Below are positions 871 to 20,119 of a DNA stretch of 24,353 bases, piece after piece; the first letter of the stretch is position 1; every line of letters starts with the position of its first letter. The DNA is taken from NCBI GenBank assembly GCA_026413945.1, contig JAOAJX010000008.1:1-24353 (forward strand), read 5' to 3'. The notes beneath the pieces were generated by a model, which had not been told where the DNA came from, did not search any database, and saw nothing but the letters and a program-made list of their open reading frames with translations. Origin of the DNA: Candidatus Iainarchaeum sp. Its GTDB lineage: Archaea > Iainarchaeota > Iainarchaeia > Iainarchaeales > DTGL01. The position numbers and the translations under genes are program-made.

Positions 871-3800
871 AAAAAGCATTTATTCTTGCATTGCTTTTAA
901 TCTTTTTTGTTAGCTTTCCAAATGCTAAAGCAGTGCCAGTAAGTGCTGCAGATTGTAGAGGAAATACTCTTACTTTAAAGGACAACAATTATGAATTTCA
1001 GGGAAATATTTCGTGTGTGAATGTAGTTATTTATGCTCAAAACCAGGACACAACAATTGATTGTAAAGGTGCAAAATTAGAAGCTTATAGGGTTTGGTAT
1101 TACCCAAAAGACGGACGTAAAATTTCTATAAAAAACTGCAAGTTTGTACCTCTTCGCGGATATTCTAGTTATAACTACCACCAATTCCTGGTAGAAAAAA
1201 GTTTTGGCTTAGAGTATATGAATAACACATTTGAGAATACTTATTATAACATTGTAAGAAAGTACTGGTACTCGGGAAAGATTGATATCGACCTTAACTT
1301 GGTTGATAATAATCTGTCGAACTCATACTTCCAACTGTATTTGTATGACTATTATACACAACAGCAAGAATTTAAGCTAAATTTAACAAACAACAAATTG
1401 AACGGTTCCTTATTATACATAAGTTTTTATAACTATTACAATCAATCAACTGGACCAAGAATTTTTGCCAACATTAATAAGAACAATTTTGTAAGCTCTT
1501 ATTTGGGGGTGGTGACATATCACTATTATAGCTCATCGCAGAGTGATATTTACAACAACATCTCGATTGTTGACAACAATTTTGAGTTATCTCAAGTATA
1601 TTTAATATATTACAATTATGGTCAATCTCTTAAAGATGTCAATCTCTATCTTGAAGTTAAAAGGAATTTTTTCAATACTTCTTCTCTTTATGCTTATAAT
1701 TACAGCTACAGATATCCGGCATTCAGGAAAACAATCAGACAAATGCAATCATCCTTGTTGGAATTTTCAGAAAACGATTTTAATATGGCTAATGTACTGC
1801 TATACCTTTACCCAAATAGTTGGTTTAATGACTTAAACAAAATTTTGATTTTCACAAAAAACAAGCTTTATGGCACAAAAATAGATTTTGCAGATTACAG
1901 ATATATACAAAATGGCAAAATTGACTTCTCCTATAATGATGTAAATAGATCTAATATTAACCTTGGTTACTGGAATTACTGGTATTGGTATTATTGGAAT
2001 TGGTGGTATTACCAGTGGTATTATGCATGGTATTACTGGTATTATTATGGAATAACAATTGACCCAAGCATTGGTGAAATTAACTTTATCGGTAATAAAC
2101 TTGAGAAAAGTAAGCTAGATTTACTCGGTTACTGGCCTTCCTCATACTCAAACTTGACAATAAGTGATAACGTTTTCAAAGGATTTTATTGTCCACCAAA
2201 TTTGAACGAAAAAGAATGTAGCAGCTATTATAAAAACATGAGAGGAATATATTGGGTTGGCCTAAGCCAACTAACTATTCCGCCGAGAAACAACACAATT
2301 ATCTCAAATAATGAGTTTTTTGGAGATCTCAATTATGATGGATCAGCGATAACTCTTATGCTTGACCCATATGGAGGCCCATACTATGGGGGTCCTTATG
2401 ATTACTGGTGGATGTGTTATTATTGGGGCTATTGTGGTTGGTATTACTATTACTATTACTATTATTACTATCACTATTATTACTATTGGTATTACTACTA
2501 TTACTGGTATTGGTATTACTACTATTACTGGTATTACTACGCTCGATACTACCCATATAGCTATTGGTATTACTACTATTACTACTATATTTACTGGTAC
2601 TATTACCACTACTATTACTACTGGTACTACTATTACTACTGGTACTACTATGGCTATTACTACCGCTGGTATTACTGGTATTACTATCGATACTACTACT
2701 ATTACTACTGGTACTACTACCGCTATTACTACGGCTATTATCCATTCTTTGACATCTGGGCGAAAGGTGTTTTCGAGATTTCAAACAATTCTTTTAGGGG
2801 CTTTAACAGTGGGCTTGAGACATTGGCTGCGGCAGATGGGCAAACTGCCATAATAAAGAACAATACATTCGAAGACAACAAATATGGCATCAAATATATC
2901 AGTAGCTATGGAACAATGCTAGTTTATAGCAACATTTTTGCTAATAACGATGTTGGAATTGGCGCAATAAGTGGCACAGCTGGTGCTACGCCGTATTTCC
3001 CATATGCTTATCCGTCGGATGGCCCAATCTCTGTATATGACAACCGCTTTGAGAATAATCGCAAATGGGCGATAAAGTATGTGGGTGCTGATATATGGTA
3101 TGCGCCATATTATGGTGCATCAGAGGATGGCATCTACAACTATGATCCAACAAATAGGCGTTCTGGACCGATGTTTACGAGGCAAGAAGTGGATGATTAT
3201 CTGAAGAACTCAAAGACTATGCTTATCTGCATGGCAAATAATGACTTCACTGCAATGCCAAATACTGGCAAGAACGCAAAGGAAGGAGCAATAAGAAGAA
3301 TATCTGAGGCTGCAAACTATAATGGCCAATGCTTTGGCTTTTGTAGCGGCGCAATAAACAGTCCGCCAATCGCTGACTTTGATTCAACAACAGGAAAGGG
3401 TGTTTCAAACCTGACAGTTCATTTCTATGATCGATCTTACGATAAAGATGGCAATATTGTGTCATGGCAATGGGACTTTGGTGATGGCACTTATAGTACA
3501 GATCAGAACCCAGCGCATACCTACACGAGCAATGGCCCTTTTAACGTTACCCTAACAGTTAAAGATAATGGCGGAGCAAAGAATAGCACTCAGAAAAAAA
3601 TAACGCCTTACGATGTGGCTTCCATAAATGAGATTTTGGTGCAAGATATATCTGCAGGCGAAAGCGCTCAGATAAGTGTTACATGCACAAAAGACCTGGA
3701 AGGTACACTCAAAGTGTACTTTGATCCGCTTGGCTCGAAAACAAAGGTTTATGAGTCAAACTACAAATGTAACTCAGGTTCTGTTTCTGTTGGTCCGTTG

Positions 3801-3995
3801 ACAGAAATAGGTGTATACCTTGTAAGATATGACTTAAGCGTACCTGCAAACAAATGCACCAAATGCAACGCGGAGAAAGAGTTCATTGTAAAGAGAAGTG
3901 CTGTTACGACAGCATCAGAAGAGCCAATAGTTGCAGTTGCTGCTTTGCTTATGGTTTTTGTGGTTTTAACAATTAAAAAAAGTGTATGTAAATAA
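867..3995 (+). CDS. Secreted surface protein: right-handed parallel beta-helix repeats, Tyr/Trp-rich inserts, PKD domain, C-terminal membrane anchor
   Basis: ATG 867 overlaps the upstream stop (ATGA) and follows GGGGGAG. Signal peptide MKKAFILALLLIFFVSFPNAKA. Repeated I-x-N-N-x-F strands (ISNNEF, ISNNSF, IKNNTF, VYDNRF). PKD signature WQWDFGDG...NPAHTY...VTLTVKD at about 3357-3605. C-terminal hydrophobic helix followed by KK. Confidence 0.85.
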   Translation: MKKAFILALLLIFFVSFPNAKAVPVSAADCRGNTLTLKDNNYEFQGNISCVNVVIYAQNQDTTIDCKGAKLEAYRVWYYPKDGRKISIKNCKFVPLRGYSSYNYHQFLVEKSFGLEYMNNTFENTYYNIVRKYWYSGKIDIDLNLVDNNLSNSYFQLYLYDYYTQQQEFKLNLTNNKLNGSLLYISFYNYYNQSTGPRIFANINKNNFVSSYLGVVTYHYYSSSQSDIYNNISIVDNNFELSQVYLIYYNYGQSLKDVNLYLEVKRNFFNTSSLYAYNYSYRYPAFRKTIRQMQSSLLEFSENDFNMANVLLYLYPNSWFNDLNKILIFTKNKLYGTKIDFADYRYIQNGKIDFSYNDVNRSNINLGYWNYWYWYYWNWWYYQWYYAWYYWYYYGITIDPSIGEINFIGNKLEKSKLDLLGYWPSSYSNLTISDNVFKGFYCPPNLNEKECSSYYKNMRGIYWVGLSQLTIPPRNNTIISNNEFFGDLNYDGSAITLMLDPYGGPYYGGPYDYWWMCYYWGYCGWYYYYYYYYYYHYYYYWYYYYYWYWYYYYYWYYYARYYPYSYWYYYYYYYIYWYYYHYYYYWYYYYYWYYYGYYYRWYYWYYYRYYYYYYWYYYRYYYGYYPFFDIWAKGVFEISNNSFRGFNSGLETLAAADGQTAIIKNNTFEDNKYGIKYISSYGTMLVYSNIFANNDVGIGAISGTAGATPYFPYAYPSDGPISVYDNRFENNRKWAIKYVGADIWYAPYYGASEDGIYNYDPTNRRSGPMFTRQEVDDYLKNSKTMLICMANNDFTAMPNTGKNAKEGAIRRISEAANYNGQCFGFCSGAINSPPIADFDSTTGKGVSNLTVHFYDRSYDKDGNIVSWQWDFGDGTYSTDQNPAHTYTSNGPFNVTLTVKDNGGAKNSTQKKITPYDVASINEILVQDISAGESAQISVTCTKDLEGTLKVYFDPLGSKTKVYESNYKCNSGSVSVGPLTEIGVYLVRYDLSVPANKCTKCNAEKEFIVKRSAVTTASEEPIVAVAALLMVFVVLTIKKSVCK
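1968..2048 (+). repeat. 27-codon Tyr/Trp tract (14 Y, 9 W)
   Basis: YWNYWYWYYWNWWYYQWYYAWYYWYYY, built mostly from TAT/TAC/TGG codons. Confidence 0.95.
2403..2741 (+). repeat. 113-codon poly-Tyr/Trp low-complexity tract (81 Y, 15 W by hand count)
   Basis: Imperfect TAY/TGG trinucleotide array, in frame with 867..3995 and with no stop codon. Confidence 0.95.
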
Positions 3996-6988: not shown

Positions 6989-8887
6989 TTGGCGAAGGAA
7001 AAAATAATTGGCATTGATCTTGGAACTTCGAATAGCCAAGCAGCTGTTGTTATAGCTGGAAGACCAACAATAATACCTTCTGCTGAAGGTCCAACTGTGG
7101 CAGGAAAAATGTTTCCTTCTTATGTAGCATTTACAAAGGAAGGCCAGCTTCTTGTAGGTGAGCCAGCAAGAAGACAAGCTGTCTCAAATCCAGAAGGCAC
7201 AGTTATAGGTGTAAAAAGAAAAATGGGTACGAACCATACCTATAAAATTTACGGCAAAACATATAAGCCGCAGGAAATCTCAGCTTTTATACTACAGAAG
7301 ATAAAAAAAGATGCGGAGGCATTTTTAGGTGAACCGGTTAAGAAGGCAGTTATAACAGTGCCTGCATATTTCAATGACAACCAACGTACTGCAACTAGAG
7401 ATGCTGGTAGAATTGCTGGGCTAGAAGTTGTAAGACTTGTTAACGAGCCAACAGCAGCAGCAATGGCCTATGGTCTTGACAAAAGCGGCGAACACAAGAT
7501 ACTTGTATTTGACCTTGGAGGTGGCACGCTCGATGTCACGATTATGGAATTTGCTGAGGGTACATACAATGTGATCTCAACATCAGGAGATACGCAGCTC
7601 GGTGGCACAGATATGGATAATGCAATAATAGATTGGGTTATCAAGGAGTTCAAGGAGAAGGAAGGCATAGATTTAAGGAATGATAGCGTTGCAATGCAAC
7701 GCATAAGAGAAGCATCTGAGAAAGCAAAAATCGAGCTTAGCACTGTTCTTGAGACTGAAATAAACCTCCCATATATAACATCTGATGACAAAGGCCCAAA
7801 GCACCTTAACCTTAAGCTTACAAGGGCAAGGCTTGAGAAGCTTATTGAGCCAATAGTAAACAGATGTCTTGCACCCATTGAACAAGCATTAAAAGATGCA
7901 AAACTCAAAAAAGACGATATAGATAAAATAGTTCTTGTTGGTGGGCCAACAAGGATGCCTATAATAAAAGAATTTCTTGAAAAACACGTTGGAAAGAAAC
8001 TCGAGCGAGGCGTTGATCCAATGGAATGCGTAGCTATTGGCGCAGCAATACAAGGCGCCATACTCGCAGGTGAGATAAAAGACCTTGTGCTATTGGACGT
8101 AACTCCACTAACTTTAGGCATAGAAACTTTAGGTAATATAATGACCCCCCTTATACCAAGAAACACAACAATTCCAACCAAAAAAAGCCAAATATTCACA
8201 ACAGCATCCGACTTCCAAAACGCTGTTACAATCCACATTCTTCAAGGCGAAAGGCCAATGGCAAAAGACAACATAAGTTTAGGGCAGTTCAACTTAGTTG
8301 GCATTCCACCAGCTCCTCGCGGAGTTCCGCAAATAGAAGTTACATTTGACATCGACGCTTCTGGCATACTGCATGTTTCTGCTAAAGATCTCGCAACAGG
8401 CAAAGAACAAAAAATGACAATAAGCGCTCCAACAAAGCTCTCGGAGAGAGAAGTTGAGGAAATGGTAAAAAAGGCAAAAGAGTTTGAGGAAGAAGACCGC
8501 AAAAAGAGGGAAGAAGCAGAGCTTAGAAACAATGCAGATGCATTAATTTATACAACTGAAAAAACACTCGCTGACCTTGGGGATAAGCTAACAGCAAAAC
8601 AAAAAGAAAAGATTGAGAAGGCACTTGGAGAAGCAAAAGATGCCCTTCAGGGTGGTGCTGTAGAGATTCTAAAAGAGAAGGTTGACGCCCTGCAAAAGGT
8701 TTTGCAGGAAGCTGGCAAGGCAATATATGAGGAAGCTGCAAAGAGATATTCTGAAGAAAAAGAAAGGCAAAAAAGCGAGTTTGGTGAAAGCAGCGATACT
8801 GAAAATGAAAAGAAGAGTAAAAGGCGTAAGTCAGATGACCAAGATGACGATACCATCGATGCTGAATTTAAAGTACAAGACGAATAA
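6989..8887 (+). CDS. dnaK: Chaperone DnaK (Hsp70)
   Basis: [38 protein letters not shown] and [15 protein letters not shown] start follows GGAGGTGG. It has the short N-terminal form typical of archaea and Gram-positives. Confidence 0.99.
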
Positions 8888-8889
8888 AC

Positions 8890-10044
8890 TTAGCTAAAGC
8901 TGTCCTTTAACTTCCCAAAAAAACCCTTTCTTTCTTTATTATCTTTCCCGTTACTTTTTCCACCTAGCGCTTCTCTTAGAAGATTCTTTTGATTAATTGA
9001 TAGATTTGTTGGTATCTTCACTATTATGTTTACAAAAAGATCCCCATATCTCTCTGAGTTTAGCTCAGGCATTCCCAAGCCTTTAAGGCGCATTTTTGTA
9101 TTGTTTTGTGTACCTGCAGGTATGTTTATAACTGCCTCCCCTTTTATGGTTTCTAATTTTACTTTGCCACCAAATATTGCAGTTAATAGGTCGATTTCAA
9201 GGTTGCAATGCAGATCATTGCCCTCTCTGCGAAAAACACTATGTTCAAGTATCTTAACTCTTACATAGAGATCTCCATTTGGGCCATTATTCAGGCCAGG
9301 TTCACCCTCACCAGCGATTCTCAAATGTTGTCCGCTTCTTATCCCTTTTGGTATTTTTACCTTTATTTTGCTAATCTTTTTCATAAATCCAGAACCATTG
9401 CATTTTTTACATTTTTTCTCGTAAATTTCTCCACTGCCTTGGCATTTCCTGCACGTGCTTATGCTTGTAAATTGCATAAAGCCCTGCCTTTTGTATTGCC
9501 TAATCTCTCCTGCCCCGTTGCATGCATCACATTTCCTCAAAAGACCTTTTTCAGCACCTGTACCATTGCAAGAATCACACCTGTGCATTTTTGGTATTTC
9601 TATTATCTTCTCTGTACCTTTAAAAGCATCTTCAAGAGTTATTTCAGTTTCATACAAAAGGTCGCTTCCGCGCTGTGGCCTTTTTTGTCTTGCCTTCCTT
9701 GCAAAGCTTCCAAAGCCAAAATCGGCAAAATCTGAAAATGAATCAAATATGTCTCCAAAACCAAAATCCTTAAAGAGGTCATCAAAGTCAGGCCATCTGT
9801 AGTTTGCAAAGTCTTCTGGCCTAAATGCAGCTTCGCCGAACTGATCATATTGTGCTCTTTTCTGGGGATCACTCAAAACTTGATACGCTTCGTTTATTTC
9901 TTTAAACTTTTCTTCAGCCTCCTTGTTCCCAGGATTTACATCAGGATGATATTTTCTTGCGAGCTGCCTGAAAGCTCTCTTTATTTCATCCTCAGTTGCG
10001 TTTTTGCTCACACCGAGAACTTCATAGTAATCCTTTTTTGGCAA
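8890..10044 (-). CDS. dnaJ: Chaperone DnaJ (class A)
   Basis: J-domain KDYYEVLGV...YHPD, a G/F region, four CxxCxGxG repeats and GDLYV/GDLFV. Probable TTG start at 10044 lies 5 nt after GGGTGA; the ORF track starts at GTG 10053. Confidence 0.98.
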
Positions 10045-10101
10045 GAAACTCACCCGCTAGTAAGCAAAGGTTTTTTGCTTTGATAATATTTTATAACAAA
10101 T

Positions 10102-10638
10102 TTATTTTACCTTTGCCATTGCATCTATGCAGCCGCGCTCGACACAATACGAGATCCTTTCCTCAATGAGTCTGCCTGTAGTTTCTTCACTGCCAAAGCC
10201 AACTATTGGGTTGAATTCACCTATGAAAGTAGTTGGAACGCCGCTTGCGTTAACTCCAAAGGCCTTTGCAAAATTGTAAAATAGGGCTTTATTTTCTTGG
10301 TTGTGCCATACTTCGTATGCTTTTACAACAAGCGTTGGGTATTTTTGTTCCATTTTCTCAAGGAATGGTTTTTGCTTTGCGCAATGCGGACAACCTTCAC
10401 CATAAAAGAAATAAAGAATAACTTCGTTTTCAACTTTATTTTCATCTTTAGTTTCTATGGCTTTTTCTTCAGGATTTTGGGTTTTTTGGGCTGGAGTTGG
10501 CTCATATGCCTGTCCTGTTTTTCCATTTTTTGCAAACCCAATGGTAGCATAACCTATCATCTGATTTCTCATAATGGCAAATATAAAAACAATTACAATG
10601 GCTAAAATAACGCCAAAAGCAATGGCTTTAATTTTCAT
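10102..10638 (-). CDS. Membrane-anchored thioredoxin/glutaredoxin-fold oxidoreductase (CPHC)
   Basis: N-terminal TM helix, linker, FFYGEGCPHC and cis-Pro loop GVPTTFIG. ATG 10638 follows GAGGGCGG. Confidence 0.88.
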   Translation of the reverse strand: MKIKAIAFGVILAIVIVFIFAIMRNQMIGYATIGFAKNGKTGQAYEPTPAQKTQNPEEKAIETKDENKVENEVILYFFYGEGCPHCAKQKPFLEKMEQKYPTLVVKAYEVWHNQENKALFYNFAKAFGVNASGVPTTFIGEFNPIVGFGSEETTGRLIEERISYCVERGCIDAMAKVK

Positions 10639-10752
10639 AAAACCGCCCTCTTCAAAATAAGCAAAAAATACTTCTTTATATAAAAAAGACCAATGCAAAA
10701 GTTTATTAAAGGGTAATGATAAAATATATAAGAAAAAAATTGTGGTGGTAAG

Positions 10753-11466
10753 ATGGAGCGTGTAAAAACAGGAATTGATGGTTTGGATGAGCTTTTGCAG
10801 GGTGGCATACCCGAAGGTTCTGCTGTCCTCATCTCAGGCGGCGCAGGAACAGGAAAAACAATTGCAAGCATGCAATTTGTTTATAATGGCGCATCTCTTT
10901 ACAATGAGCCAGGAATATATGTGAGCTTAGAGACAAATCTGAAAAACATTATTTGGAACATGGAGAGTTTTAACTGGGATATAAGAAGCTTGCAAGAGAG
11001 TAACTTGATGAAGATTTACCGCCTAAACATAAGCTATGCAAAAACCCGCGAAGAGGTAATTCAGCGTGTTGACGAGGAGCTAAACACAATTTCGCAGCTA
11101 GTGAAAGAGATAAATGCAAAGCGCCTTGTTGTTGACTCAATTGCCTCTTTTGGCGTTTGGTTTGACAGCCCAGGCCTTATAAGGGCAATTCTATTTGAAT
11201 TTGTTGACAAGCTCAAAAATATGGGCTGCACAACTATGCTTACAACAGAGACGCGAGGCGGAAGGCGCGAGTTTTCAGCATATGGTGTTGAAGAGTTCGT
11301 TACTGATGGCGTAATAGCACTTTATTTTACTCCACCACACAGAAGCATTTTTATAAAGAAAATGCGAGGCACAGACCACAGCAAGATTCCGCATCCTTTT
11401 GAAATTACGGAAAGAGGCATAGTTGTAAACCCACAAGACAGAGTGCTTTGGGAATCAATAAAGTAA
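10753..11466 (+). CDS. Single-domain KaiC/RAD55-family RecA-superfamily ATPase
   Basis: RVKTGIDGLDELLQGGIP, Walker A GGAGTGKT, Walker B RLVVDS and KKMRGTDHS. RBS GGTGG. Confidence 0.93.
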   Translation: MERVKTGIDGLDELLQGGIPEGSAVLISGGAGTGKTIASMQFVYNGASLYNEPGIYVSLETNLKNIIWNMESFNWDIRSLQESNLMKIYRLNISYAKTREEVIQRVDEELNTISQLVKEINAKRLVVDSIASFGVWFDSPGLIRAILFEFVDKLKNMGCTTMLTTETRGGRREFSAYGVEEFVTDGVIALYFTPPHRSIFIKKMRGTDHSKIPHPFEITERGIVVNPQDRVLWESIK

Positions 11467-11502
11467 AACCTTTTCTTTTTTATTCCCTTAATTCTATTCT
11501 TT

Positions 11503-11697
11503 TTAGAATAGGGATTTTATTCTCATTGCACTGAGCAAAAGCGATATTACGAAAATAATAAATATGAGCACAATTCCTTGCATAAGTGCCTCTTCCCATG
11601 AGACTTCCTTCTTGTATGCAAACTTTGCACTTACCTTCACAGCCCAAAGCATAAGGCCTAAGCTCAATGCCATGCCAAAAAACTCAGGAAAGTTCAT
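11503..11697 (-). CDS. Small two-TM hypothetical membrane protein
   Basis: 64-aa ORF with two hydrophobic segments, filling the intergenic gap. Confidence 0.6.
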   Translation of the reverse strand: MNFPEFFGMALSLGLMLWAVKVSAKFAYKKEVSWEEALMQGIVLIFIIFVISLLLSAMRIKSLF

Positions 11698-11783
11698 ATT
11701 TTAACTATTTAAAAGTAAAGAAAAAAAAGCTTTGCTTTTATCTGCTCTCCACAAAGAACTCAACTTTCAAATCTGCCCCTTGT

Positions 11784-13850
11784 TTAACCATGGTGTGCGT
11801 GATGCCTATTTTTGCTTCTTGGCATGCTTACAAAACCATGCGCTTTGAATTTTCTTGCTAACAATATTTGCCTTCTTTTGAGGGCAATAAGTTTTTTCTG
11901 GCGATCTCTTGCGCTAACAAATGCGCAGTACAATGGGACGAAAGCTAAGGTAATCAAAACTACCAGAAGTAAAATGAAATTTGTGCTTAAATCCACGCCT
12001 CTTTCGCTTTCGCTAAAGGACTCTATCTCTTCTTCTAAAAGACCTATCTTTAAAGACAATTGGACTAGTTTAGTGCTTGGAGATTCTAACTCGTTTCTTT
12101 GAATCTGAGCTTCAGCAGAAATAAGCTCATCTTCCAGTTTTTTGGCTTCATCTTCGATTTCAGAAACTTCAAATTCTTTAGCTTTTAAAGCCCTAATTTT
12201 GCTTTTTACTTTTTGTATTCTTTGCTTCAACTCAAAAATAGTTAGTGAATAATCTGTTTTTTCCTTTTGGGCAACATAAAAAGCGCACATTGCTTCCCTC
12301 TGCTGGAAATTTGAATCTGCGCTAATTGTTGAAAGCTTTGCCCTGAAAAAGTAATTGCCGCTCTTCATAGCCTCAGAAATAGTTTCTACTATGTGCTTGT
12401 CAGCTTTTCCACCCGGTTTTATTGCAATTGGTGTGGAGGATGAAACGTATACTTTGCCATTGCTGTCCTCTATCGACCATGAAAGCATGATGTCAGTATA
12501 ATAAGTACCAACATTATAAGCAGAAACATCAAAGTAAGCAGTAGTGCCCGCGGTTACAACAGGGGTTGTGCAAAGCGCTGATAAATCATACCTCAGCTCA
12601 CCACCGAGATCAATAAGCTTGGTCTCCGTAGCAAACTTAGTTGATTTGTCTATTGAGTAAACATTGACCGACATTACATGCAAGCCAGATGCTTCCGGTG
12701 TCCATGGCAAAAGCATTGAAAATCTTTGCTTTGAGAGCGGCTCAACACCCAAGTAAGTGCGCTCGTCTATATATTCTATCTCAGCCTCCTGCTTTATTAC
12801 TACAGAGATGACAATATCAATCTTTTTATCTGAAAGGTTTTCTATAATCCCGCTTATAAAGCTAGCCTCACCAACTTTCAATGGCTCAACCTTTAATTCT
12901 GAAATTTTTACTTCTGGCTTAACAAATGGCTCAGGCGTTTGTTGTGTAGGTGTTGGCGTTATAGTTATTTGGCCGCCACCGCCTCCGCCACCACCCCCAC
13001 TGCCGCCCCCGCCGCCCGGAATACATTCCCCACAGTCCTTTGGGCAGTTTTTGCAGTTTTCACCAGCTTCACAAATTCCATTGCCGCAAACCAAAATTGA
13101 TGTTACCCTGAATTTTCCATTATAATCAGCCGCATTCTTTCCCGAAGAAAAAGTTACATTGTAGCGGTATTCTCCCAAGATGTTTTGGGCTGTGAAAGTA
13201 TATGCATAGTAACCAGGTGTTGATAATTCTACAAGCGTTGCTTTATTTACAAAAACATTGCCTGATGGCTGCCAAATAGTTATCCTTCCTTCTGCATGTT
13301 TAAGTGGCTGCGAAGATACACTTGCAAAGAACATTAATGTTGCGTTTTCGCCAGGAGCAAATACATTGTTTCCAACTGTGGTAATACTTATTTCATAGGT
13401 TCCACAATAAAAGTATTCGCTTGCTATGGCAGTATTTTTATTTTCGTCGCTTGCAGTAACATATAAAGTGTATACCCCGTTTTGTTCAAATTTAAAACTT
13501 CTAATGTAATTGCCATCACCGACTTCGTAAAAGTCCAATGTTTGAGTGCTGCCATCCGGCTTAAGCATGTATCCCAAAACATCTAGGTCCTCAACGCCAT
13601 TGCCAGCAGCCAAGGCCTTGATTTTAATAATTTTTGTTTCACCGAGGTTTGGAGTAAAGTTGGCATCAATATATATTGAGTAATAGCTTACCGCTTCAGA
13701 ATACCATGTCAGAACAGTGCTTTCAGCTGTGCCCGAGATCCCAAAATCAAAAAGGAGTGATATTATGAGCAGCAGCGTCAGAACTGTAGCCACTTTTCTT
13801 AATTGCATGTCAATAATAAGGTCTTGCCATTTAAATTTTTTTTGTTTCAA
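11784..13850 (-). CDS. Secreted, C-terminally membrane-anchored multi-Ig-like surface protein (candidate fibre base/anchor)
   Basis: Signal-like N-terminus, beta-rich domains, CGNGICEAGENCKNCPKDC, a poly-Gly plus Pro/Thr linker, CARDB-like repeats, a coiled coil, TM FILLLVVLITLAFVPLY and a basic tail. The start is uncertain (TTG 13850 or ATG 13808). Confidence 0.8.
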   Translation of the reverse strand: MKQKKFKWQDLIIDMQLRKVATVLTLLLIISLLFDFGISGTAESTVLTWYSEAVSYYSIYIDANFTPNLGETKIIKIKALAAGNGVEDLDVLGYMLKPDGSTQTLDFYEVGDGNYIRSFKFEQNGVYTLYVTASDENKNTAIASEYFYCGTYEISITTVGNNVFAPGENATLMFFASVSSQPLKHAEGRITIWQPSGNVFVNKATLVELSTPGYYAYTFTAQNILGEYRYNVTFSSGKNAADYNGKFRVTSILVCGNGICEAGENCKNCPKDCGECIPGGGGGSGGGGGGGGGQITITPTPTQQTPEPFVKPEVKISELKVEPLKVGEASFISGIIENLSDKKIDIVISVVIKQEAEIEYIDERTYLGVEPLSKQRFSMLLPWTPEASGLHVMSVNVYSIDKSTKFATETKLIDLGGELRYDLSALCTTPVVTAGTTAYFDVSAYNVGTYYTDIMLSWSIEDSNGKVYVSSSTPIAIKPGGKADKHIVETISEAMKSGNYFFRAKLSTISADSNFQQREAMCAFYVAQKEKTDYSLTIFELKQRIQKVKSKIRALKAKEFEVSEIEDEAKKLEDELISAEAQIQRNELESPSTKLVQLSLKIGLLEEEIESFSESERGVDLSTNFILLLVVLITLAFVPLYCAFVSARDRQKKLIALKRRQILLARKFKAHGFVSMPRSKNRHHAHHG

Positions 13851-13878
13851 TAAAACAGCAAATTGCCAATAAAATAAA

Positions 13879-14826
13879 CTAGTTTACCTTTATGATCAGC
13901 CTAAAGTGTGGCCTGTTTATTGAAATGCCACTGCTCGCTGCATCAAAGTATAACATTTTGTATTTCAAAAGCCACTCTGTTCTTACCTCTTCAGGCGGCA
14001 TTACGGGGTCTACTCCTAAGACATATTCGCCTTTTGGTGTATTTTCTTTTACCTTAACCCTTACTTTAATCGCTCTTGCCCAATCTTTTCCGAATTTAGG
14101 ATATGTTGGTGAAAGCAGAAAGACAGGCTCATCGAATGTAACATCGAAATATTTGCTTACTTCTTCAGGGTTTTGGACATTGAAGATTCTGCCATTAGCG
14201 TCAGCTGATGTTGCAGGGTAAGTTGGTGCAAGCTTTACGCCTTGATAGGTTTGTATACCCCAGCCAGTGTGCCAGAATGTCTTCGCCTCAAATTCAGCCC
14301 CAGGATATGTATTAACCCATATATCTGCAGGGTATGCACCCCAGCCTATGACACCCCAGCTTGAAGGATTCGGCTCTTTCCACCAGCGCAGCCCCGCAGC
14401 CTCAAAGTTTGGGTAAAATTCAGGCTGCTTATAATATTCTTCAGTAAAATATGTTAGATCTTTCCATCGCCCTACTTCAAACATATATGTCATTGTTCCA
14501 AAATCATCAGGTATTGGCGGCAATTCAGCGAATACCTCCATTGGTATGCCATATTTTTCCCTGTGCGGTCTTCTCATCTCTTCAAAGGCCCTTTCTCTGC
14601 TAACTTCTTGCATGAGCTTCTCAAATTCAGAAATTTCACTCTTGTTTGGGGTTTCATTTTGTGTTGGCGTTTCAACTGGCTCAATTGTTTTTTCATACGG
14701 TGTTGGTGTAAGGTCCGAATTTAAAGTTGCAAAAGGAACATTGCGGAAATTTCCGCCATAATATAAAACTAAAAAAACACCAAATACAACTATAACAGCC
14801 AAAGCCAAAACATATGTTTTCTTCAT
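13879..14826 (-). CDS. Membrane-tethered protein of unknown family, paralogue A (candidate assembly chaperone)
   Basis: N-terminal TM helix, Pro/Thr linker, QPEFYP, TYQGVKL and PTYPKF motifs. Clearly homologous to 19262..20119. Confidence 0.8.
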   Translation of the reverse strand: MKKTYVLALAVIVVFGVFLVLYYGGNFRNVPFATLNSDLTPTPYEKTIEPVETPTQNETPNKSEISEFEKLMQEVSRERAFEEMRRPHREKYGIPMEVFAELPPIPDDFGTMTYMFEVGRWKDLTYFTEEYYKQPEFYPNFEAAGLRWWKEPNPSSWGVIGWGAYPADIWVNTYPGAEFEAKTFWHTGWGIQTYQGVKLAPTYPATSADANGRIFNVQNPEEVSKYFDVTFDEPVFLLSPTYPKFGKDWARAIKVRVKVKENTPKGEYVLGVDPVMPPEEVRTEWLLKYKMLYFDAASSGISINRPHFRLIIKVN

Positions 14827-14887
14827 AAGTAGGTTAAAAAAAGCGAACAATATAAAAAGCTAACTTATAAACCACTAAGATTAACTT

Positions 14888-14920
14888 AAAAATAAAAAAA
14901 TAAAGAAGGAGCCGAAGCCC
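14888..14920 (-). terminator. cUUCGg hairpin plus U-rich tract after the 212-aa gene
   Basis: The minus strand reads GGGC-TTCG-GCTC then CTTCTTTATTTTTTTATTTTT, starting 7 nt after the stop. Confidence 0.6.
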
Positions 14921-14927
14921 GAGAGAA

Positions 14928-15566
14928 TTAACTAAAGCTTTGTACTGCTTCGGTTTCCAGCGTGTCTTGTGTTGTGCCGTATGGCATTCCTGAAAAATCA
15001 GCTGCCAGGCAGATGCCAGCACTACTGCTTATAGCCAAATCAGCAATTATCTGTTTTGTGGTATTCCCTATTGTTACACAAGCTGTTGTAGTTGGTACCG
15101 TATCATCATCTGTGCCGCTTTTTGAACATGTCGCTTCCCAGCCACCCATGCCGTTTGTTCCACAATGTGTGCCGTTTGAAAGCCATGCCTTCAGTGTTAC
15201 TCCCGTTTCTAATGTAGTTGTTATTCTGGCATTTATGTCAAATGGAACGTTACCCTGATTATGTATAGTAATTGCTACTTTGTTTGTGCCATCTTGGCAT
15301 GAACTTCCGCCACTTGCAGCATTATATGGCGGTATTTTGCTTGCTGTGCCGTTTATTGGAGTAGCGCCTTCAAGAGCGTTTGACTCAACAAAATACATTG
15401 CTGATGTGCTACAGCTCCCACCGTAAGTTAATGCGTGCGTTACATTTGCTGGAATTACCCATGTCAATGTTGTCTGCTGCGTGTCAGCATAAACCATTGA
15501 AAGAGCAAGCAATAGAGCAACTGCAACAGATAGGTAACCTATCAGCTTAACTTTTATTTCCATCAT
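14928..15566 (-). CDS. Secreted Thr/Gly/Ala-rich beta protein with 6 Cys (candidate major fibre subunit)
   Basis: Signal peptide ending VYA|D, no membrane anchor, strong RBS AAGGAGGT and its own terminator. Homologous to the C-terminus of 15704..19252. Confidence 0.8.
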   Translation of the reverse strand: MMEIKVKLIGYLSVAVALLLALSMVYADTQQTTLTWVIPANVTHALTYGGSCSTSAMYFVESNALEGATPINGTASKIPPYNAASGGSSCQDGTNKVAITIHNQGNVPFDINARITTTLETGVTLKAWLSNGTHCGTNGMGGWEATCSKSGTDDDTVPTTTACVTIGNTTKQIIADLAISSSAGICLAADFSGMPYGTTQDTLETEAVQSFS

Positions 15567-15615
15567 GAGGAGACCTCCTTGGGTGGTATTTACCGCTATA
15601 GTATGTGTGAACTTA

Positions 15616-15631
15616 TTTATATATTTTACGC
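15616..15631 (-). promoter_or_regulatory. BRE/TATA-like promoter for the leftward arm
   Basis: The minus strand reads GCGTAAAA-TATATAAA about 50 nt upstream of ATG 15566, within the divergent gap. Confidence 0.5.
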
Positions 15632-15703
15632 TTATTATTCAATTTTGGTGCAAAAGCAATTTGCAAAGCAAAAAAAGCCCAGTGGTGTAGTGGTGTTTTT
15701 GAA

Positions 15704-18700
15704 ATGTGTTTAATGCATTTAGATGAAAGGGCAAGATCGAGCTTTTTTGCCGTATCTTTGTTTCTTCTGCTGTTTACCCCACTTTTAACTGTCTTTAGTG
15801 ATGTTGCAAATGATAATTTGGTTGTGCAAGCCCCATTAGAAGATCTTGCGGAAAAAGAGAAGAAGGTGCCTGAAATAGAGATTTCAATAGTTTCCCCACT
15901 CAATAGCGAATCAGTGAGTGGCTTGGCTGTTGTCATAGCTGTTATACAGCCAATAAGTGAGGTAACTTCAGCTTGGTTTGAGATAAACGGAAAAGAACTT
16001 GGCGAGCTTTACAAGGAGAAAAATTTTTCATCTGATTTTAATACTTTCGCATTTGTTAACGGTGCGTACACCTTTTCAGTTCATGCTTGTATTGGGGATT
16101 ATTGCTCATTTGAAGCCATAGAAATTGAGATTAATAACCAAGAACTCCAGCCAACTCCCGCAGAAAGTCCCACAGTTCATCAAGATAGTCAAACACCTGA
16201 GCCAACTCAGCAAGCAACAACTACGCCAACAGTTGATGAAAATCAAGCGCAGATACCTAGCCAGCCATCAGAACAAGAACCAGAAAAAAAATATTCGATC
16301 AGGCCATCAAACATATTTTCAGCAGCAGTCTTTTATGATGATAAAAACGAGCCTATTGCTTCGGGCACTGATACTGTTTATGTGCCAGCTGGCACATACA
16401 ATGTTTCGGTATCTTTTTTCGAGTTCACTGTTTCAGAGATAAAGATTGCTCAAGCCTTAATTGAATCTGATGCAATGCTGTTTGAAGTAGATGGCAACAT
16501 TGATGTAAATAGCATTACTTTTAATGACCAGAACTTTTACCTTAAAGAAGTAATAGCTTTTATGTCTGGGCTTACTTTTAATGAAGGCTCTGCAACCTTT
16601 AGGCTCCCGCCCTTTTCTGACGCAATTTTTGTCTGCGAAGATTGGGATTTCCAAAAGAAGGAATGCGGGGCTAACTTTACTCTTCTTGCAGAGGTAAGTG
16701 GTGCTGAAGCAACCATTCCCTTCAGCCAAGGCCAAAAGGCCTTTGTCTTTGCTGAGAAATATGAGGAAGAAATAGTTCCGCCGGACTTCAATGCTGATGA
16801 TTTCGAGAAAGATTTGCCAGAGTCAAAGATAAAAAAATCTGGGAAAAAACATTTTTTACTCTCAAAGCCACGCCAAAAATACTTGGCAAATGAAATGCCT
16901 GTTTTTGAATTCCAGGCACTTAATGATATAAATGAAGCTGCTGATGTTGAAATAGAAGCATACCTCATTTTTCCTGATGGCACAGAAACCCAGATTGAAA
17001 TGAAAAAGATACAAAAAAAAGCAAAAGGCCTTTTTAATATAATTGTTCCTGTTCCTAGAAGCTTCAAGGCTGGCAGGTATAACTTAAAGGTCAAGATCTT
17101 CGACGGTAATGAAGTCTCTGAGCATTCATCTTCTTTTGAGTGGGGCCTTGTTGCAGTTAATACAGAGAAGAGCATCTACGCACCAAACGAAACAGCAGTT
17201 TTTCACATCGTTGTTCTTGACCGCGAAAGTTACGGCGTAAGTGGTGCTGAAGTAAATCTTGGCGTTTTGTTTCCCGATGGTGAAACACAGACAATTTCTA
17301 CAATAGATGGCACAATAGCTGAAACAACATCAGCAGGCGTCTACATCGGCGAAATGAGAGTTGGTGGCGAAGGCATTTACAAAATTATGGTTCAGGCTAA
17401 AGCCCAGAATATCGATGCGGAAATACATAGCTCCTTTGAAGTAAGGCAGAATGTTCCCTTTGAAATAATCAGGCGCGCAGCAACAAAGATTGATCCTGCT
17501 GTGCAACCGAATAAGGTTGAAATATTTATAAAGGCTTCCGATGCTCAGAAAAAAATAACTGCCAGGGAATTCGTGCCAGCGGAATTTGAAATAGAGAAAA
17601 ACAAAAATTTTTCAATCAAAACCAAAGGCAAAGAAAAAATAATTGAGTGGAAAGACGTTGAATTCAATGCCGATGGGGAGGCCAAATTGACTTACTACTA
17701 TTCAGTGCCAGATAGAAAGCCATGGCTTTACAATATAGGGCCTATCGAAATCGATTACAAAGCTGGTGCTTTTACAGAAGCCAGAGCATGGATGATAGCA
17801 GTCGACGCCAATCCCACAACAATATTTTTCTATCGCCGCTCTGCAGATTGGGTGCCAAGAGAACCGATGCCCAATGCAGGTCAACTTCCTCATTATTTGT
17901 TGTCTTCATCATGGGCCGGCTTTGGTATGAATGACGTTGCTGGCACCACGGCTCAATGCCATAATAATCCATCTCCTGGGCCAACTGGCTCAGGTGCGGT
18001 TGCTTTAGCTGGCTTTACGTCACCGCCACTCGTAACACAATCAATAAGCGCCACAACATGGAGGATTACTTCAGATATGAATGAAAGCGCAGCTAATGAC
18101 AACGCTTATCCATATACAATTCTTATGAAATGGAACAGAAACGATACTCCAGGCACAATCATTGTTTCAGAGCGGCGAATCAGCGGTAGTGAGCTCACAA
18201 CGTCAATACGCAGAGACAGCGTATCAGTAACTGGTAGTGCTGTTACTTTTAACAGAGGTGACAAGCTTTACGTTGAACTCGATGTGAATGCTGTTGCTGG
18301 CAGCACTATTGTAGGTACTGTTTGCTTTGGCGGAAATAATGCTGGAACAAGAGATGGCAACATAATATCGCCAAGCATCCGTCTTGCCGGCAATCTCGAT
18401 ACAGCAATAGTCTCACCACAGAACAATTCTAAAAAGGTTATAAATACGGATTTTGATGTGAATGTCAGAGGCACATGCATAAATTATTCTTGTGGTGATA
18501 CTAATGTCACATTAAGGTACTGCATTAATCCTGACAGTGGCTGCTTACAATGGCTTGACATGAATACTGACCCAAACAGTCCGCTTTACATCTCTTCCGG
18601 CAGTTATTTTAGAAGAGATGATCTGCTCGATGTCTCAGATACAAACTATTTTGTATTTACTATAAAAGGAACCCAAACTGGCAAATACACTATAAGATCA

Positions 18701-19252
18701 AAAATAGATTCTATATGGAGCGAAGACATAAACTATTCAAATAATAGCAATGGTGACATAAATGTTACAATAAAATTGCCACCAAACTATGCTTTCTCAC
18801 TTTCTTATCCAGCTACCGGCTGTACTTATGGTAAAGGGAGCATTGATGAAGACAGCAGCTGCGATAGGGCTTACTTCGAGCCAACAGATCTTACAGGTCT
18901 TTCAGACCAAAACAAAGTGGATCCACAAGGCCAAAATTCATCAACCCCCTTTTTCGTTTATGATAACCAGAGCACAGGGGAAAATGACATGAATTTTACA
19001 CTGCATCTAAACTCTGCGCTGCCAAGCACACTTAAACTAAAGGTGTCGCAAAGCTATAATGGCTGGTACCTTACTTGCTCAGGCGATCCAGCTTCCAACT
19101 GTGTGGAAATAGATTCCACACCGAAGAATATTGGCAAGGCAATATATAGCACAGGCACCAAAGATCTCAATATTTTTATTTTTGCGGACTTTATTGGAGC
19201 TGGTGTTGGTACCACTGACAGAAATGCAATAAGCACAAGCATTGAGAGCTGA
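15704..19252 (+). CDS. Large secreted multidomain surface protein (Ig-like and MG2-like domains) ending in a subunit-like domain (candidate tip adhesin)
   Basis: Signal peptide, Ig-like domain, P/T/Q linker, WGLVAVNTEKSIYAPNETA (MG2-like) and no C-terminal TM helix. The last ~158 aa align with 14928..15566. Confidence 0.8.
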   Translation: MCLMHLDERARSSFFAVSLFLLLFTPLLTVFSDVANDNLVVQAPLEDLAEKEKKVPEIEISIVSPLNSESVSGLAVVIAVIQPISEVTSAWFEINGKELGELYKEKNFSSDFNTFAFVNGAYTFSVHACIGDYCSFEAIEIEINNQELQPTPAESPTVHQDSQTPEPTQQATTTPTVDENQAQIPSQPSEQEPEKKYSIRPSNIFSAAVFYDDKNEPIASGTDTVYVPAGTYNVSVSFFEFTVSEIKIAQALIESDAMLFEVDGNIDVNSITFNDQNFYLKEVIAFMSGLTFNEGSATFRLPPFSDAIFVCEDWDFQKKECGANFTLLAEVSGAEATIPFSQGQKAFVFAEKYEEEIVPPDFNADDFEKDLPESKIKKSGKKHFLLSKPRQKYLANEMPVFEFQALNDINEAADVEIEAYLIFPDGTETQIEMKKIQKKAKGLFNIIVPVPRSFKAGRYNLKVKIFDGNEVSEHSSSFEWGLVAVNTEKSIYAPNETAVFHIVVLDRESYGVSGAEVNLGVLFPDGETQTISTIDGTIAETTSAGVYIGEMRVGGEGIYKIMVQAKAQNIDAEIHSSFEVRQNVPFEIIRRAATKIDPAVQPNKVEIFIKASDAQKKITAREFVPAEFEIEKNKNFSIKTKGKEKIIEWKDVEFNADGEAKLTYYYSVPDRKPWLYNIGPIEIDYKAGAFTEARAWMIAVDANPTTIFFYRRSADWVPREPMPNAGQLPHYLLSSSWAGFGMNDVAGTTAQCHNNPSPGPTGSGAVALAGFTSPPLVTQSISATTWRITSDMNESAANDNAYPYTILMKWNRNDTPGTIIVSERRISGSELTTSIRRDSVSVTGSAVTFNRGDKLYVELDVNAVAGSTIVGTVCFGGNNAGTRDGNIISPSIRLAGNLDTAIVSPQNNSKKVINTDFDVNVRGTCINYSCGDTNVTLRYCINPDSGCLQWLDMNTDPNSPLYISSGSYFRRDDLLDVSDTNYFVFTIKGTQTGKYTIRSKIDSIWSEDINYSNNSNGDINVTIKLPPNYAFSLSYPATGCTYGKGSIDEDSSCDRAYFEPTDLTGLSDQNKVDPQGQNSSTPFFVYDNQSTGENDMNFTLHLNSALPSTLKLKVSQSYNGWYLTCSGDPASNCVEIDSTPKNIGKAIYSTGTKDLNIFIFADFIGAGVGTTDRNAISTSIES

Positions 19253-19261
19253 TGTGGTGAT

Positions 19262-20119
19262 ATGATAAAAAAATTTGCTTTCAGAGGCCATGAAAAAAAG
19301 CTTATTGTGGTTTTATTTGCATCTATGGCTGTTATATTCCTTTTTTTGTTTTTAGTTCCAGATAAAAAAATGACTGCAAATGTTATTGTTTCAAATCAAG
19401 TTGAAAGAGCAAATGACAAAACTTCCGCTGAGCAAACAGTTGATAAAGTCACCCCAGATACAGACCTTACAAGCCAAAATCCGATTTGGCAAATGCGCCT
19501 TAACTATGGAATTCCCTTAAGCGTTTTCGAGAACCTTCCTCAAGTGCCACATGACTTTAATGCTATAGTTTCACTTATGCACCGCAACGCTTATACCAAC
19601 TATGACTTTTTTTCAGAAAGATATTTTCTCCAACCTGAGTTTTACCCTTCTTTTACAGATACGGGCCTAATTTACTGGCAAAACCCAGATCCTAAACATT
19701 ATGCTGTGGCCGGCATTGGTTTCTTCCCTGGTACACAGCAAATAAAGGTTAAAAAAGGTAATTATTCTAAAACTAAAATTTTTTTGCACGCCGGCTTCGG
19801 AGTAAGAACGTATCAAGGCATAAAAATAAGTGCCTTTTTCGTTGATGATTGTAATGGAATTTCTTTTGAGCTGCCCAAAAAAGATTTTTTGATAGGCCCC
19901 AGCTATCCAAAATTTGATTCTCAATGGGCATTAGATATTCCAATAAAGATAAAAGCCAGTGAAAACACAGTAAAAAGCAATTGTGAGCTGAAGTTTAGGA
20001 TTGAAAAACCCTCTGAAGATAACAGCATAAAATGGCGCACAGCTTATGGAAAAAAATATTTTGAGACGGCAGAAGCCGGCGCAATAAATTCTACAAGCAT
20101 AACAATAAAAATAGAGTAA
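19262..20119 (+). CDS. Membrane-tethered protein of unknown family, paralogue B (candidate assembly chaperone)
   Basis: N-terminal TM helix. YGIPLSVF, QPEFYP, TYQGIKI and PSYPKF are shared with 13879..14826. Confidence 0.8.
   Translation: MIKKFAFRGHEKKLIVVLFASMAVIFLFLFLVPDKKMTANVIVSNQVERANDKTSAEQTVDKVTPDTDLTSQNPIWQMRLNYGIPLSVFENLPQVPHDFNAIVSLMHRNAYTNYDFFSERYFLQPEFYPSFTDTGLIYWQNPDPKHYAVAGIGFFPGTQQIKVKKGNYSKTKIFLHAGFGVRTYQGIKISAFFVDDCNGISFELPKKDFLIGPSYPKFDSQWALDIPIKIKASENTVKSNCELKFRIEKPSEDNSIKWRTAYGKKYFETAEAGAINSTSITIKIE

Follow-up and report, generated by a model that had tools for sequence, protein, structure and literature searches.

The stretch of DNA analysed here, 24,353 nucleotides of contig JAOAJX010000008.1 (assembly GCA_026413945.1, Candidatus Iainarchaeum sp.) and called the window below, raises the question of why two predicted surface proteins, otherwise unlike each other, begin with much the same strand. 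The first is the product of a 688-amino-acid (aa) open reading frame (ORF; P0001, 11784..13850, minus strand) and is called the anchor here; the second is a 212-aa protein (P0003, 14928..15566, minus strand), called the subunit. The initial annotation proposed that the anchor donates this strand to the last subunit of a fibre and ties the fibre to the membrane. In our reading the cluster at 11784-20119, which also holds a 1182-aa candidate tip adhesin and two candidate membrane-tethered chaperones, is the gene set for a surface fibre that is held together by donor-strand complementation and made by a DPANN (Diapherotrites/Iainarchaeia-like) archaeon; we give this a probability of roughly 0.6. 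In the databases, the nearest copies of the 688-aa protein carry the names of Candidatus Diapherotrites archaea.

A strand common to anchor and subunit

In the 688-aa ORF the strand occupies residues 41-60 (13730-13671, minus strand) and starts T-A-E-S-T-V-L-T-W; in the 212-aa ORF it occupies residues 28-48 (15485-15423, minus strand) and starts D-T-Q-Q-T-T-L-T-W. Given cleavage after I-S-G in the anchor and after V-Y-A in the subunit, L-T-W falls at mature positions 7-9 and Ala at position 13 in both proteins, just as the initial annotation had read it. The cleavage sites are rule-based, assigned from hydrophobic segments, the -3/-1 rule and its conservation in relatives: the five anchors that begin with a hydrophobic leader show G, A, A, A or G at position -1, and Ala27 is nearly invariant among subunits. 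The long ORF more probably begins with the ATG at 13808, which gives 674 aa as in the database copy P0012 and leaves the signal peptide (ORF residues 15-40; 13731..13808, minus strand) unaffected. In the 674-aa numbering the mature protein runs from Thr27 and the Trp is residue 35. The part that acts as putative donor strand in the complex model described below covers ORF residues 41-54, or 27-40 of P0012 (13689..13730, minus strand).

Elsewhere the two proteins are indeed without likeness (best BLASTP E = 14), and the match between the single pair is as short as had been cautioned, and weak, with 5/20 identities. The comparison was also made between families. The anchor set comprised six sequences of 24-69% identity, namely the window copy, P0013, P0014 (the copy in locus L004), P0015 and the copies in loci L001 and L003; it remained at six because a homologue search with anchor residues 36-262 found only 2 proteins among 1248 candidates. 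The conservation among orthologues on which the annotated motif hinged was found: the Trp is kept in register in 6/6 anchors, and Trp35 is the sole invariant residue besides Met1 within the first 83 positions of the 6 orthologues. P0013, which is 69% identical to the anchor, is annotated with an N-terminus lacking a hydrophobic leader and yet retains the Trp and the residues that follow; its start was probably mis-called, or the gene is broken upstream.

A profile of 52 subunit sequences was scanned against the profile of the six anchors. Along the anchor, the proposed register ranked first among 655 offsets for 20 columns (z = 4.3); with the 8-column core it again came first, among 667, and with 12 columns second, among 663. 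Scanned the other way, along the subunit, it was first among 193-205 offsets. Because the register ranks 1/655 and the Trp is invariant, the match does not look like chance at the family level, and the profiles confirm the strand similarity as real at that level. A position-specific scoring matrix (PSSM) of the subunit strand was also built from the 52 family sequences, which are gap-free over their first 20 mature residues. The strand of P0015, the most distant of the orthologues, scored 18.4 bits, exceeding all 31,222 background positions, and is a near-canonical subunit strand.

Two further candidates were set aside. The residue before the Trp agrees between anchor and subunit in 3/4 clusters (T/T, S/S, T/T, S/K), a co-variation that we do not count because, by a rough estimate, it is a ~1-in-9 chance event. 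Matches of the anchor hidden Markov model (HMM) to two subunit N-termini (E = 2e-4, 7e-4) are not counted either, as the alignment spans the signal peptides.

The subunit and its modelled complex with the anchor

The subunit gene encodes a signal peptide recognised from its hydrophobic segment and the -3/-1 rule (15486-15566), an N-terminal extension (15438-15485) and a pilin domain (14931-15437), all on the minus strand. A word-indexed homologue search retrieved 8 proteins among 125 candidates, and an exhaustive profile search extended the family to 86 representative clusters (50% identity) at E <= 0.001, of which 55 lie at <= 1e-10 and 10 at <= 1e-30. Nearly all members have a leader, a small residue and then a Thr-rich strand with Trp or Phe and [VI]-P; the six Cys of the pilin are invariant among the eight closest relatives. 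The leader places its hydrophobic segment ahead of a conserved site, with cleavage between A and D or A and A, and the mature N-terminus is polar and Thr-rich; the subunit lacks the features of a type IV pilin or class III signal peptide. Some members are longer (P0073, P0078, P0084, P0058 and P0067; 342-1123 aa) and carry the pilin module at the C-terminus. In P0073, P0078 and P0084 the complete Trp-containing extension is internal, ahead of the module, so that donor strands of this family may also act within a chain.

The AlphaFold2 (AF2) model of the subunit, computed from the 52 sequences, reached a predicted local distance difference test (pLDDT) score of 94.8 and a predicted TM-score (pTM) of 0.82. 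In this model DSSP assigns no strand to residues 23-43 and places the first strand at 44-48, the first 16 mature residues being unpaired; the terminal extension is thus predicted to lie outside the subunit's own sheet. The nine best fold matches in the PDB (Foldseek) include seven named pilus or fibre subunits, all of them weak matches at E 0.0036 to 0.064: Pyrobaculum bundling pilus, Sulfolobus thread, Csu, CfaB, Pyrodictium cannulae, TasA and SafA. The remaining two of the nine are 'TLP-1' cryo-electron microscopy entries, and FimG and Caf1 rank next. Assembly of these fibres by strand donation is described in the literature (including PMC9715654, PMC11821415 and PMC12337348). The nearest named clusters in the Atlas (DUF1102, Peptidase_M73 and WxL at 0.79-0.80) serve as leads only, and a PDB sequence search with the subunit profile returned a chance-level match (E = 0.16). 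Taken with the model, the fold matches support the view that the 212-aa protein looks like a donor-strand subunit.

Subunit residues 41-212 were then modelled together with anchor residues 27-142 (674-aa numbering), a pair that mimics a subunit whose extension is engaged elsewhere. The initial annotation had suggested such complementation modelling, and its outcome favours the proposal: the anchor strand inserts in the subunit groove, with complex scores of 0.82, 0.86 and 0.89 (median 0.86 vs 0.00 for the best of 3 controls). The score mark was reached by 58/80 solved complexes and 2/110 mismatched pairs, counts that are only a rough calibration because our own alignments were used. The predictor had no solved complex of this family to draw on; strand complementation in general is already familiar to it. 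At least 86% of the contacts were common to the runs, and the pLDDT of the partner was at least 81.

On the anchor side the confident interface consists of residues 27-40 only, and on the subunit side of residues 42-48, 54-62, the core residues 99, 116, 120, 123, 125, 187, 189 and 191, and residues 194-207. The inserted strand lies between subunit 57-62 and the C-terminal strand 194-207. It runs antiparallel to the C-terminal strand, as seen in the lowest-error pairs 31/203, 33/201 and 35/199, and parallel to 57-62, with 33-36 beside 59-61. In the model the Trp packs on Phe59, Val123, Ala189 and Phe191, in a pocket that would be formed by the conserved Y-F-x-E and A-D-F positions of the subunit. 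The 40 interface residues are also better conserved than the other 132 (2.12 vs 1.75 bits over the 52 sequences; one-sided Mann-Whitney p = 0.001). The model therefore supports the claim that the anchor strand can fill the subunit groove.

These results bear on whether there is a fibre at all. Were there none, the extension would be the first strand of a complete monomer, the anchor N-terminus would belong to its own immunoglobulin (Ig)-like domain, and the likeness would be a convergence of beta strands rich in Thr and aromatic residues. Such a reading fits the weak pairwise match, and some family members as well as the 1182-aa protein do hold the extension internally, in cis; the vacancy in the modelled subunit, moreover, was produced by the cut at residue 41. 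The AF2 monomer, however, left residues 23-43 unpaired with the extension present. In the complex model the first Ig-like domain of the anchor, which lies behind the strand, stays clear of the subunit; the first rank and the invariant Trp speak against chance, and the gene cluster is conserved. We therefore regard the absence of a fibre as very improbable.

The other cluster genes and the proposed assembly

Behind its strand the anchor carries a long stalk, all of it on the minus strand. Residues 55-254 of the ORF (13089..13688) are read as two Ig-like domains of MG2/filamin/YtkA-like type from sub-threshold Pfam matches to YtkA, Filamin and MG2, and this region resembles the MG2 region of the 1182-aa protein (BLASTP E = 0.002). 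A Cys-rich knot (255-276) and a poly-Gly stretch (278-293) follow at 12972..13088, identified in the sequence and in the orthologue alignment, where the knot occurs in 4/6 anchors and the Gly run in 6/6. The knot has 22 residues and six Cys (C-G-N-G-x-C-E...C-P-x-D-C-G-x-C; 13023-13088) and stands directly before the Gly run; P0015 and the L003 copy lack it. Residues 294-528 (12267..12971) comprise a Thr/Pro linker and two more beta-rich domains, seen as conserved alignment blocks with no Pfam match, and the conserved beta-rich sequence spans ~215 residues past the linker. The charged stretch at 529-618 (11997..12266) is probably a coiled coil, to judge from its composition: residues 520-620 are 44% E/K/R/D/Q with 1 Pro and 2 Gly per 101 residues, and residues 539-614 give a weak SMC-related match (E = 0.0048). 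The protein ends in a transmembrane (TM) helix (625-645; Kyte-Doolittle peak 2.76) and a basic cytoplasmic tail (646-688; together 11787..11978), and P0014 and P0015 end in a comparable hydrophobic segment. The stalk, poly-Gly stretch, helix-like charged stretch and single C-terminal hydrophobic helix that had been annotated are thus all present, as is a basic tail. Having no pilin domain of its own, the anchor would be a donor-only subunit, a role that is part of the fibre reading and shares its probability.

The 1182-aa protein (P0016; 15704..19252, plus strand) is made up of a signal peptide, MG2-like and other domains and a C-terminal pilin module at 18755-19249 (plus strand; subunit HMM E = 3e-15). 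Its last ~165 residues are homologous to the whole mature subunit. When the subunit family was aligned with the C-terminal 200 aa of five large proteins of this kind, hhalign returned a probability of 98.9% (E = 2.5e-17, 153 columns). The Y-F-E, A-D-F and T-D positions, which line the groove in the subunit model, are invariant in the five large proteins. Where P0016 aligns to the donor strand it shows gaps and no longer has the Trp. From this sequence pattern the 1182-aa protein is likely to be the distal adhesin.

The other two proteins, P0002 (323 aa; 13879..14850, minus strand) and P0017 (285 aa; 19262..20119, plus strand), are paralogues (BLASTP E = 6e-41; HMM E = 5e-112), each with an N-terminal hydrophobic (TM) helix. 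The AF2 model of P0002 was computed from 9 sequences (pLDDT 75.9; core >= 85) and consists of a helix (2-31), a disordered linker (32-70), a helical part (75-165) and a beta sandwich (170-322, most blocks 88-96). Foldseek returned 148 matches at E <= 0.001, the best of which include PapD-like/MSP domains (6fvi, E = 4.8e-6, TMt 0.51; 2e6j) and the enterococcal WxLIP 9i1y; Caf1M, FaeE, SfaE and CsuC match at E about 1e-4, the PapD-like, MSP and chaperone matches together ranging from 1e-4 to 5e-6. None of the 9 P0002-like members matches PapD_N or PapD_C, or any other Pfam family at E <= 0.01 (best stray E = 0.05), and the best Atlas hits of P0002 are unnamed archaeal clusters at 0.79. P0002 and P0017 are candidate membrane-tethered assembly chaperones, the likely role in view of the cluster. 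A Pfam/NCBIfam scan of the five cluster proteins gave nothing above the gathering threshold except the MG2 domain in P0016.

The five related loci (L001-L005), confirmed from 56 pattern matches, were compared by BLASTP and HMM over all ORFs. L001 and L003 carry the five genes on a single strand, beginning with the large protein and continuing with the 285-like gene, the subunit, the 323-like gene and the anchor. The window and L004 hold the same genes divided into divergent halves, in the window a minus-strand trio (P0003, P0002, P0001) facing the plus-strand pair P0016 and P0017. Subunit-type modules and P0002-like genes both occur in 5/5 loci, the large protein in 4/5 and the anchor in 3/5 (L001, L003 and L004), where it adjoins subunit genes. 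The gene cluster is conserved across loci. Its flanks in the window are housekeeping genes (GrpE/DnaK/DnaJ, a KaiC-like ATPase, a thioredoxin-like protein, an aminotransferase and an alcohol dehydrogenase).

Computation shows that the two strands are alike and that this likeness is conserved, that the anchor strand inserts in the model, that the tip module is homologous to the subunit and that the gene order is kept; from this we infer how the parts may work together. Subunits, tip and anchor would be exported by Sec and cut by signal peptidase, and the tethered P0002 and P0017 would perhaps hold the subunit grooves open. In the mature subunit an N-terminal extension of 16 residues would precede a six-Cys beta-sandwich whose groove, next to the C-terminal strand, is open, and subunits would polymerise as the N-terminal strand of each fills the groove of the preceding one. 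The 1182-aa adhesin would sit at the end where no strand of its own is needed and would accept the strand of the first subunit. The first 14 mature residues of the anchor, a diverged copy of the subunit extension, would fill the groove of the cell-proximal subunit as a beta strand. Behind them the two Ig-like domains, the Cys knot, the Gly/Thr-Pro hinge, the two beta domains, the probable coiled coil, the TM helix and the basic tail would form a stalk long enough to span the cell envelope and tie the fibre to the membrane. As the anchor has no groove, it would end the chain, cap the groove end and root the fibre in the membrane. The biological role would be adhesion, possibly to a host cell.

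In both families the motif directly follows the signal peptide, and the two P0002-like proteins are conserved partners with no assigned activity. On these grounds the motif might be a recognition tag, read by the 323/285-aa proteins or by a peptidase; the 688-aa protein would then be a stalked surface protein in its own right. The complex model, by contrast, puts the strand within the subunit sheet at a score far from that of the controls, and the groove residues that it contacts are conserved. The tip module retains those groove residues but has no N-terminal tag, and no peptidase family was found among the cluster proteins (Pfam, NCBIfam). A recognition tag therefore seems unlikely to us.

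Several observations nevertheless weigh against a fibre of the kind proposed. With the 20-column PSSM the window anchor is not separable from background: it scores 3.4 bits, a value reached at a per-position frequency of 2e-3 among the 31,222 background positions, and a rival site within the same anchor protein scores 6.0 bits. The window anchor departs from the subunit consensus downstream of the Trp, and the Pro three residues past the Trp is kept in just 2/6 anchors (L001, P0015). Since the extension was cut at residue 41, the complex model is silent on whether a subunit would release its own strand in trans, and for controls it used unrelated proteins in place of strand-deleted or scrambled anchors. 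Foldseek gave no PDB match to the subunit at E <= 0.001, with TM-scores <= 0.35. The extension-like segment of P0016 together with the next strand scores 18.0 bits, a recognisable cis copy, and because this copy persists P0016 is not a clean acceptor-only tip. The chaperone call depends on one generic Ig-like beta sandwich, and GH123 N-terminal domains and cohesins match P0002 equally well; protease-associated domains are also among its matches. L002 and L005 have subunit and chaperone-like genes, but the DNA fetched for these two loci yielded no anchor gene. Finally, the system is known from computation alone, its host is uncultured and the cleavage sites are rule-based.

The related loci show some irregularities of their own. 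L001, the best-conserved five-gene copy, lies on a contig binned as a Chloroflexi bacterium metagenome-assembled genome, the other loci being titled archaeal; six neighbouring genes (NCBIfam) are compatible with mis-binning or transfer. In L004 (Iainarchaeum) the subunit gene P0030 (7594-7902, plus strand) encodes just 102 aa. Of these, the first ~92 resemble the subunit and the final 26 match residues 298-323 of P0002, the C-terminus of that 323-aa protein (77% identity). This looks like a deletion or an assembly join at a short common D-A-A-S stretch, one that would have removed most of the subunit and the chaperone-like neighbour; the anchor, the 285-like gene and the large protein are still there. 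In L005 three tandem paralogues of 411-421 aa (7850-11638, plus strand) each carry the subunit N-terminal strand and the first ~80 HMM positions, a ~200-residue insert and the C-terminal pilin half. A P0002-like gene follows them at 11643-12470, and the locus has no anchor-like gene.

Further observations concern the neighbouring genes. Within a few kb of the cluster, the window encodes a thioredoxin-fold protein (10102-10698, minus strand); in L003 a ResA-like thiol-disulfide oxidoreductase (11435-12568, plus strand) is similarly close. A link of such thioredoxin-type neighbours to disulfide formation in the pilin is possible. A single-domain KaiC-like ATPase (10753-11466, plus strand) is convergent to the anchor gene. 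Its KaiC-domain matches to ArlH/FlaH fall far under the cut-offs, and no type IV pilus ATPase or platform family was found among the window proteins (Pfam, NCBIfam). A KaiC-like fragment of 34% identity also occurs in L005 (5-574, plus strand), ~7 kb from the subunit genes, which may be coincidence. The window encodes one other large protein of surface type (1055 aa; 828-3995, plus strand); it has PKD and beta-helix domains, and the subunit HMM found no pilin module in it. A 107-aa ORF (15613-15936, minus strand) overlaps, on the opposite strand, the beginning of the 1182-aa gene; being of low complexity and unmatched in all searches, it is probably spurious.

Comparison with known systems

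Chaperone-usher pili (Fim, Pap, Csu, Caf1) have donor strands at the N-terminus and tip adhesins that end in a pilin domain, as proposed for the present cluster, and PapD-like chaperones, for which the cluster has candidates; they occur as fold matches in the Foldseek lists of both the subunit and P0002. They differ in that there is no outer membrane and no usher here (no usher family among the window proteins in Pfam and NCBIfam), in that the chaperone candidate combines one sandwich with a helical part and a TM tether, and in that the terminator is entirely without a pilin domain. The Pfam family Fimbrial (PF00419) was matched by 1/52 subunit members at a sub-threshold E = 0.0075, P0003 itself being unmatched.

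Among archaea, the known strand-donation fibres (threads, bundling pili, cannulae and tafi) are chaperone-free by description, and how they are attached to the cell is mostly obscure; Tat (twin-arginine translocation)-dependent pili are described as free of both chaperone and usher (10.64898/2026.10.17.759780). The tafi (Tat-fimbriae) of haloarchaea (PMC11821415, PMC12337348) are likewise strand-donation fibres, with a proposed tip (TafC), an adapter (TafE), a fibre subunit (TafA) and a proposed membrane-spanning anchor (TafF). In the tafi model, however, the TafA strand enters a TafA-like domain of TafF, so that the anchor is the acceptor (PMC11821415), whereas here it is the donor. The tafi subunits have Tat signals and a dedicated peptidase, TafD; the leaders of our anchor and subunit lack a twin arginine, DUF1102 is matched by 0/52 subunit members, and the Atlas similarity to a DUF1102 cluster (0.80) is under the level that counts.

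The Elr (WxL) pilus of Enterococcus faecalis, with ElrD as fibre, ElrE as membrane-anchored chaperone, ElrA as tip and ElrB as base (bioRxiv 10.64898/2026.10.17.759780), resembles the present cluster in its logic. Both, in the reading proposed here, have a large tip adhesin with a terminal pilin-type module, a fibre subunit that donates and accepts, a donor-only base whose N-terminus follows the donor-strand motif and whose C-terminus holds it to the cell, and a tethered chaperone (here a candidate) with no usher. ElrB is a 13 kDa protein anchored by LPxTG and sortase, whereas the anchor here is a ~70 kDa stalk ending in a TM helix, in whose sequence no LPxTG was seen. The Elr system is reported as confined to Bacillota (10.64898/2026.10.17.759780), and no sequence relation to it was found: the WxL Pfam family is matched by 0/52 subunit members, and DUF916 and DUF3324 by 0/9 chaperone-like members.

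The Pam pilus of Candidatus Mycosynbacter amalyticus, a bacterium of the candidate phyla radiation (CPR), is built from the pilins PamA/B/E, the tip PamT, the chaperones PamC and PamD and the terminator PamR (PMC13278184). Compared by its published description, it combines two membrane-anchored PapD-like chaperones, to which the two candidates here would correspond, with the absence of an usher, and its host is an ultrasmall, probably symbiotic cell. PamR, of Ig/FnIII type, is modelled to insert its N-terminus in the last pilin, ending and tethering the fibre, and so parallels the anchor described here. Pam differs in being bacterial, in the C-terminal position of the chaperone TM helix (N-terminal here) and in having two-domain pilins with an internal linker strand.

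Donor-only proteins are also known in another role. TapA of the Bacillus subtilis TasA fibre is a donor-only nucleator, as cited in PMC9715654 and PMC11821415, and Saci_0405 of the Sulfolobus thread has been proposed as a donor-only cap or nucleator (PMC9715654). Like our anchor, both carry a donor strand, lack an acceptor site and cap or nucleate a donor-strand fibre; Saci_0405, unlike it, has a pilin-like fold, no Sec signal and no TM anchor. The fold matches of the subunit to these fibres are weak (Sulfolobus thread 7pnb, E = 0.032; 7ueg, E = 0.02, and 8aur, E = 0.061, for the comparison with TasA and archaeal bundling pili), Peptidase_M73 is matched by 0/52 subunit members, and no SipW-type peptidase was found in the cluster. 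By analogy the 688-aa protein could be a membrane-bound, TapA-like nucleator to which subunits add distally, the 1182-aa protein capping the free strand last. In favour of this, its strand lies at the far end of a long stalk, distant from the short-tethered chaperone candidates, and the sequences are compatible with an anchor that comes first, as nucleator in the manner of TapA, as well as last, as terminator in the manner of the chaperone-usher, Elr and Pam models. In the latter three models, however, the fibre grows at the base and the donor-only protein terminates it, and the two chaperone-like genes fit base growth by strand exchange. We consider a nucleating anchor the less likely option, if a more serious one than a recognition tag.

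The design itself is already known from the bacterial Elr and Pam pili (2026 preprints), and we judge the archaeal DPANN variant to be new; in the literature on DPANN donor-strand or Diapherotrites pilins, judged by titles and abstract openings, no such pilus was found. Cell-cell attachment is central to DPANN biology and DPANN surface genes are almost all unannotated. The cluster defines at least three unannotated protein families, with 86 representative clusters in that of the pilin alone and no Pfam match for either the pilin or the chaperone-like family. It offers a fully specified, testable DPANN architecture with its tip, its fibre, a donor-only stalk in the membrane and two chaperone candidates. 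As a tentative extension, which we hold with distinctly less confidence than the fibre itself, it may represent the first pilus of an archaeon to be assembled by donor-strand exchange under the guidance of chaperones and without an usher, with a giant tip adhesin, a six-Cys pilin, a TM-anchored donor-only stalk and two tethered PapD-like chaperones, arisen independently of Elr and Pam, DPANN-wide, and holding ultrasmall cells to their hosts. If true, it would be the convergent counterpart of the CPR Pam pilus; the design of Bacillota and CPR bacteria would extend to a third domain, and this would point to its repeated invention in cells without an outer membrane.

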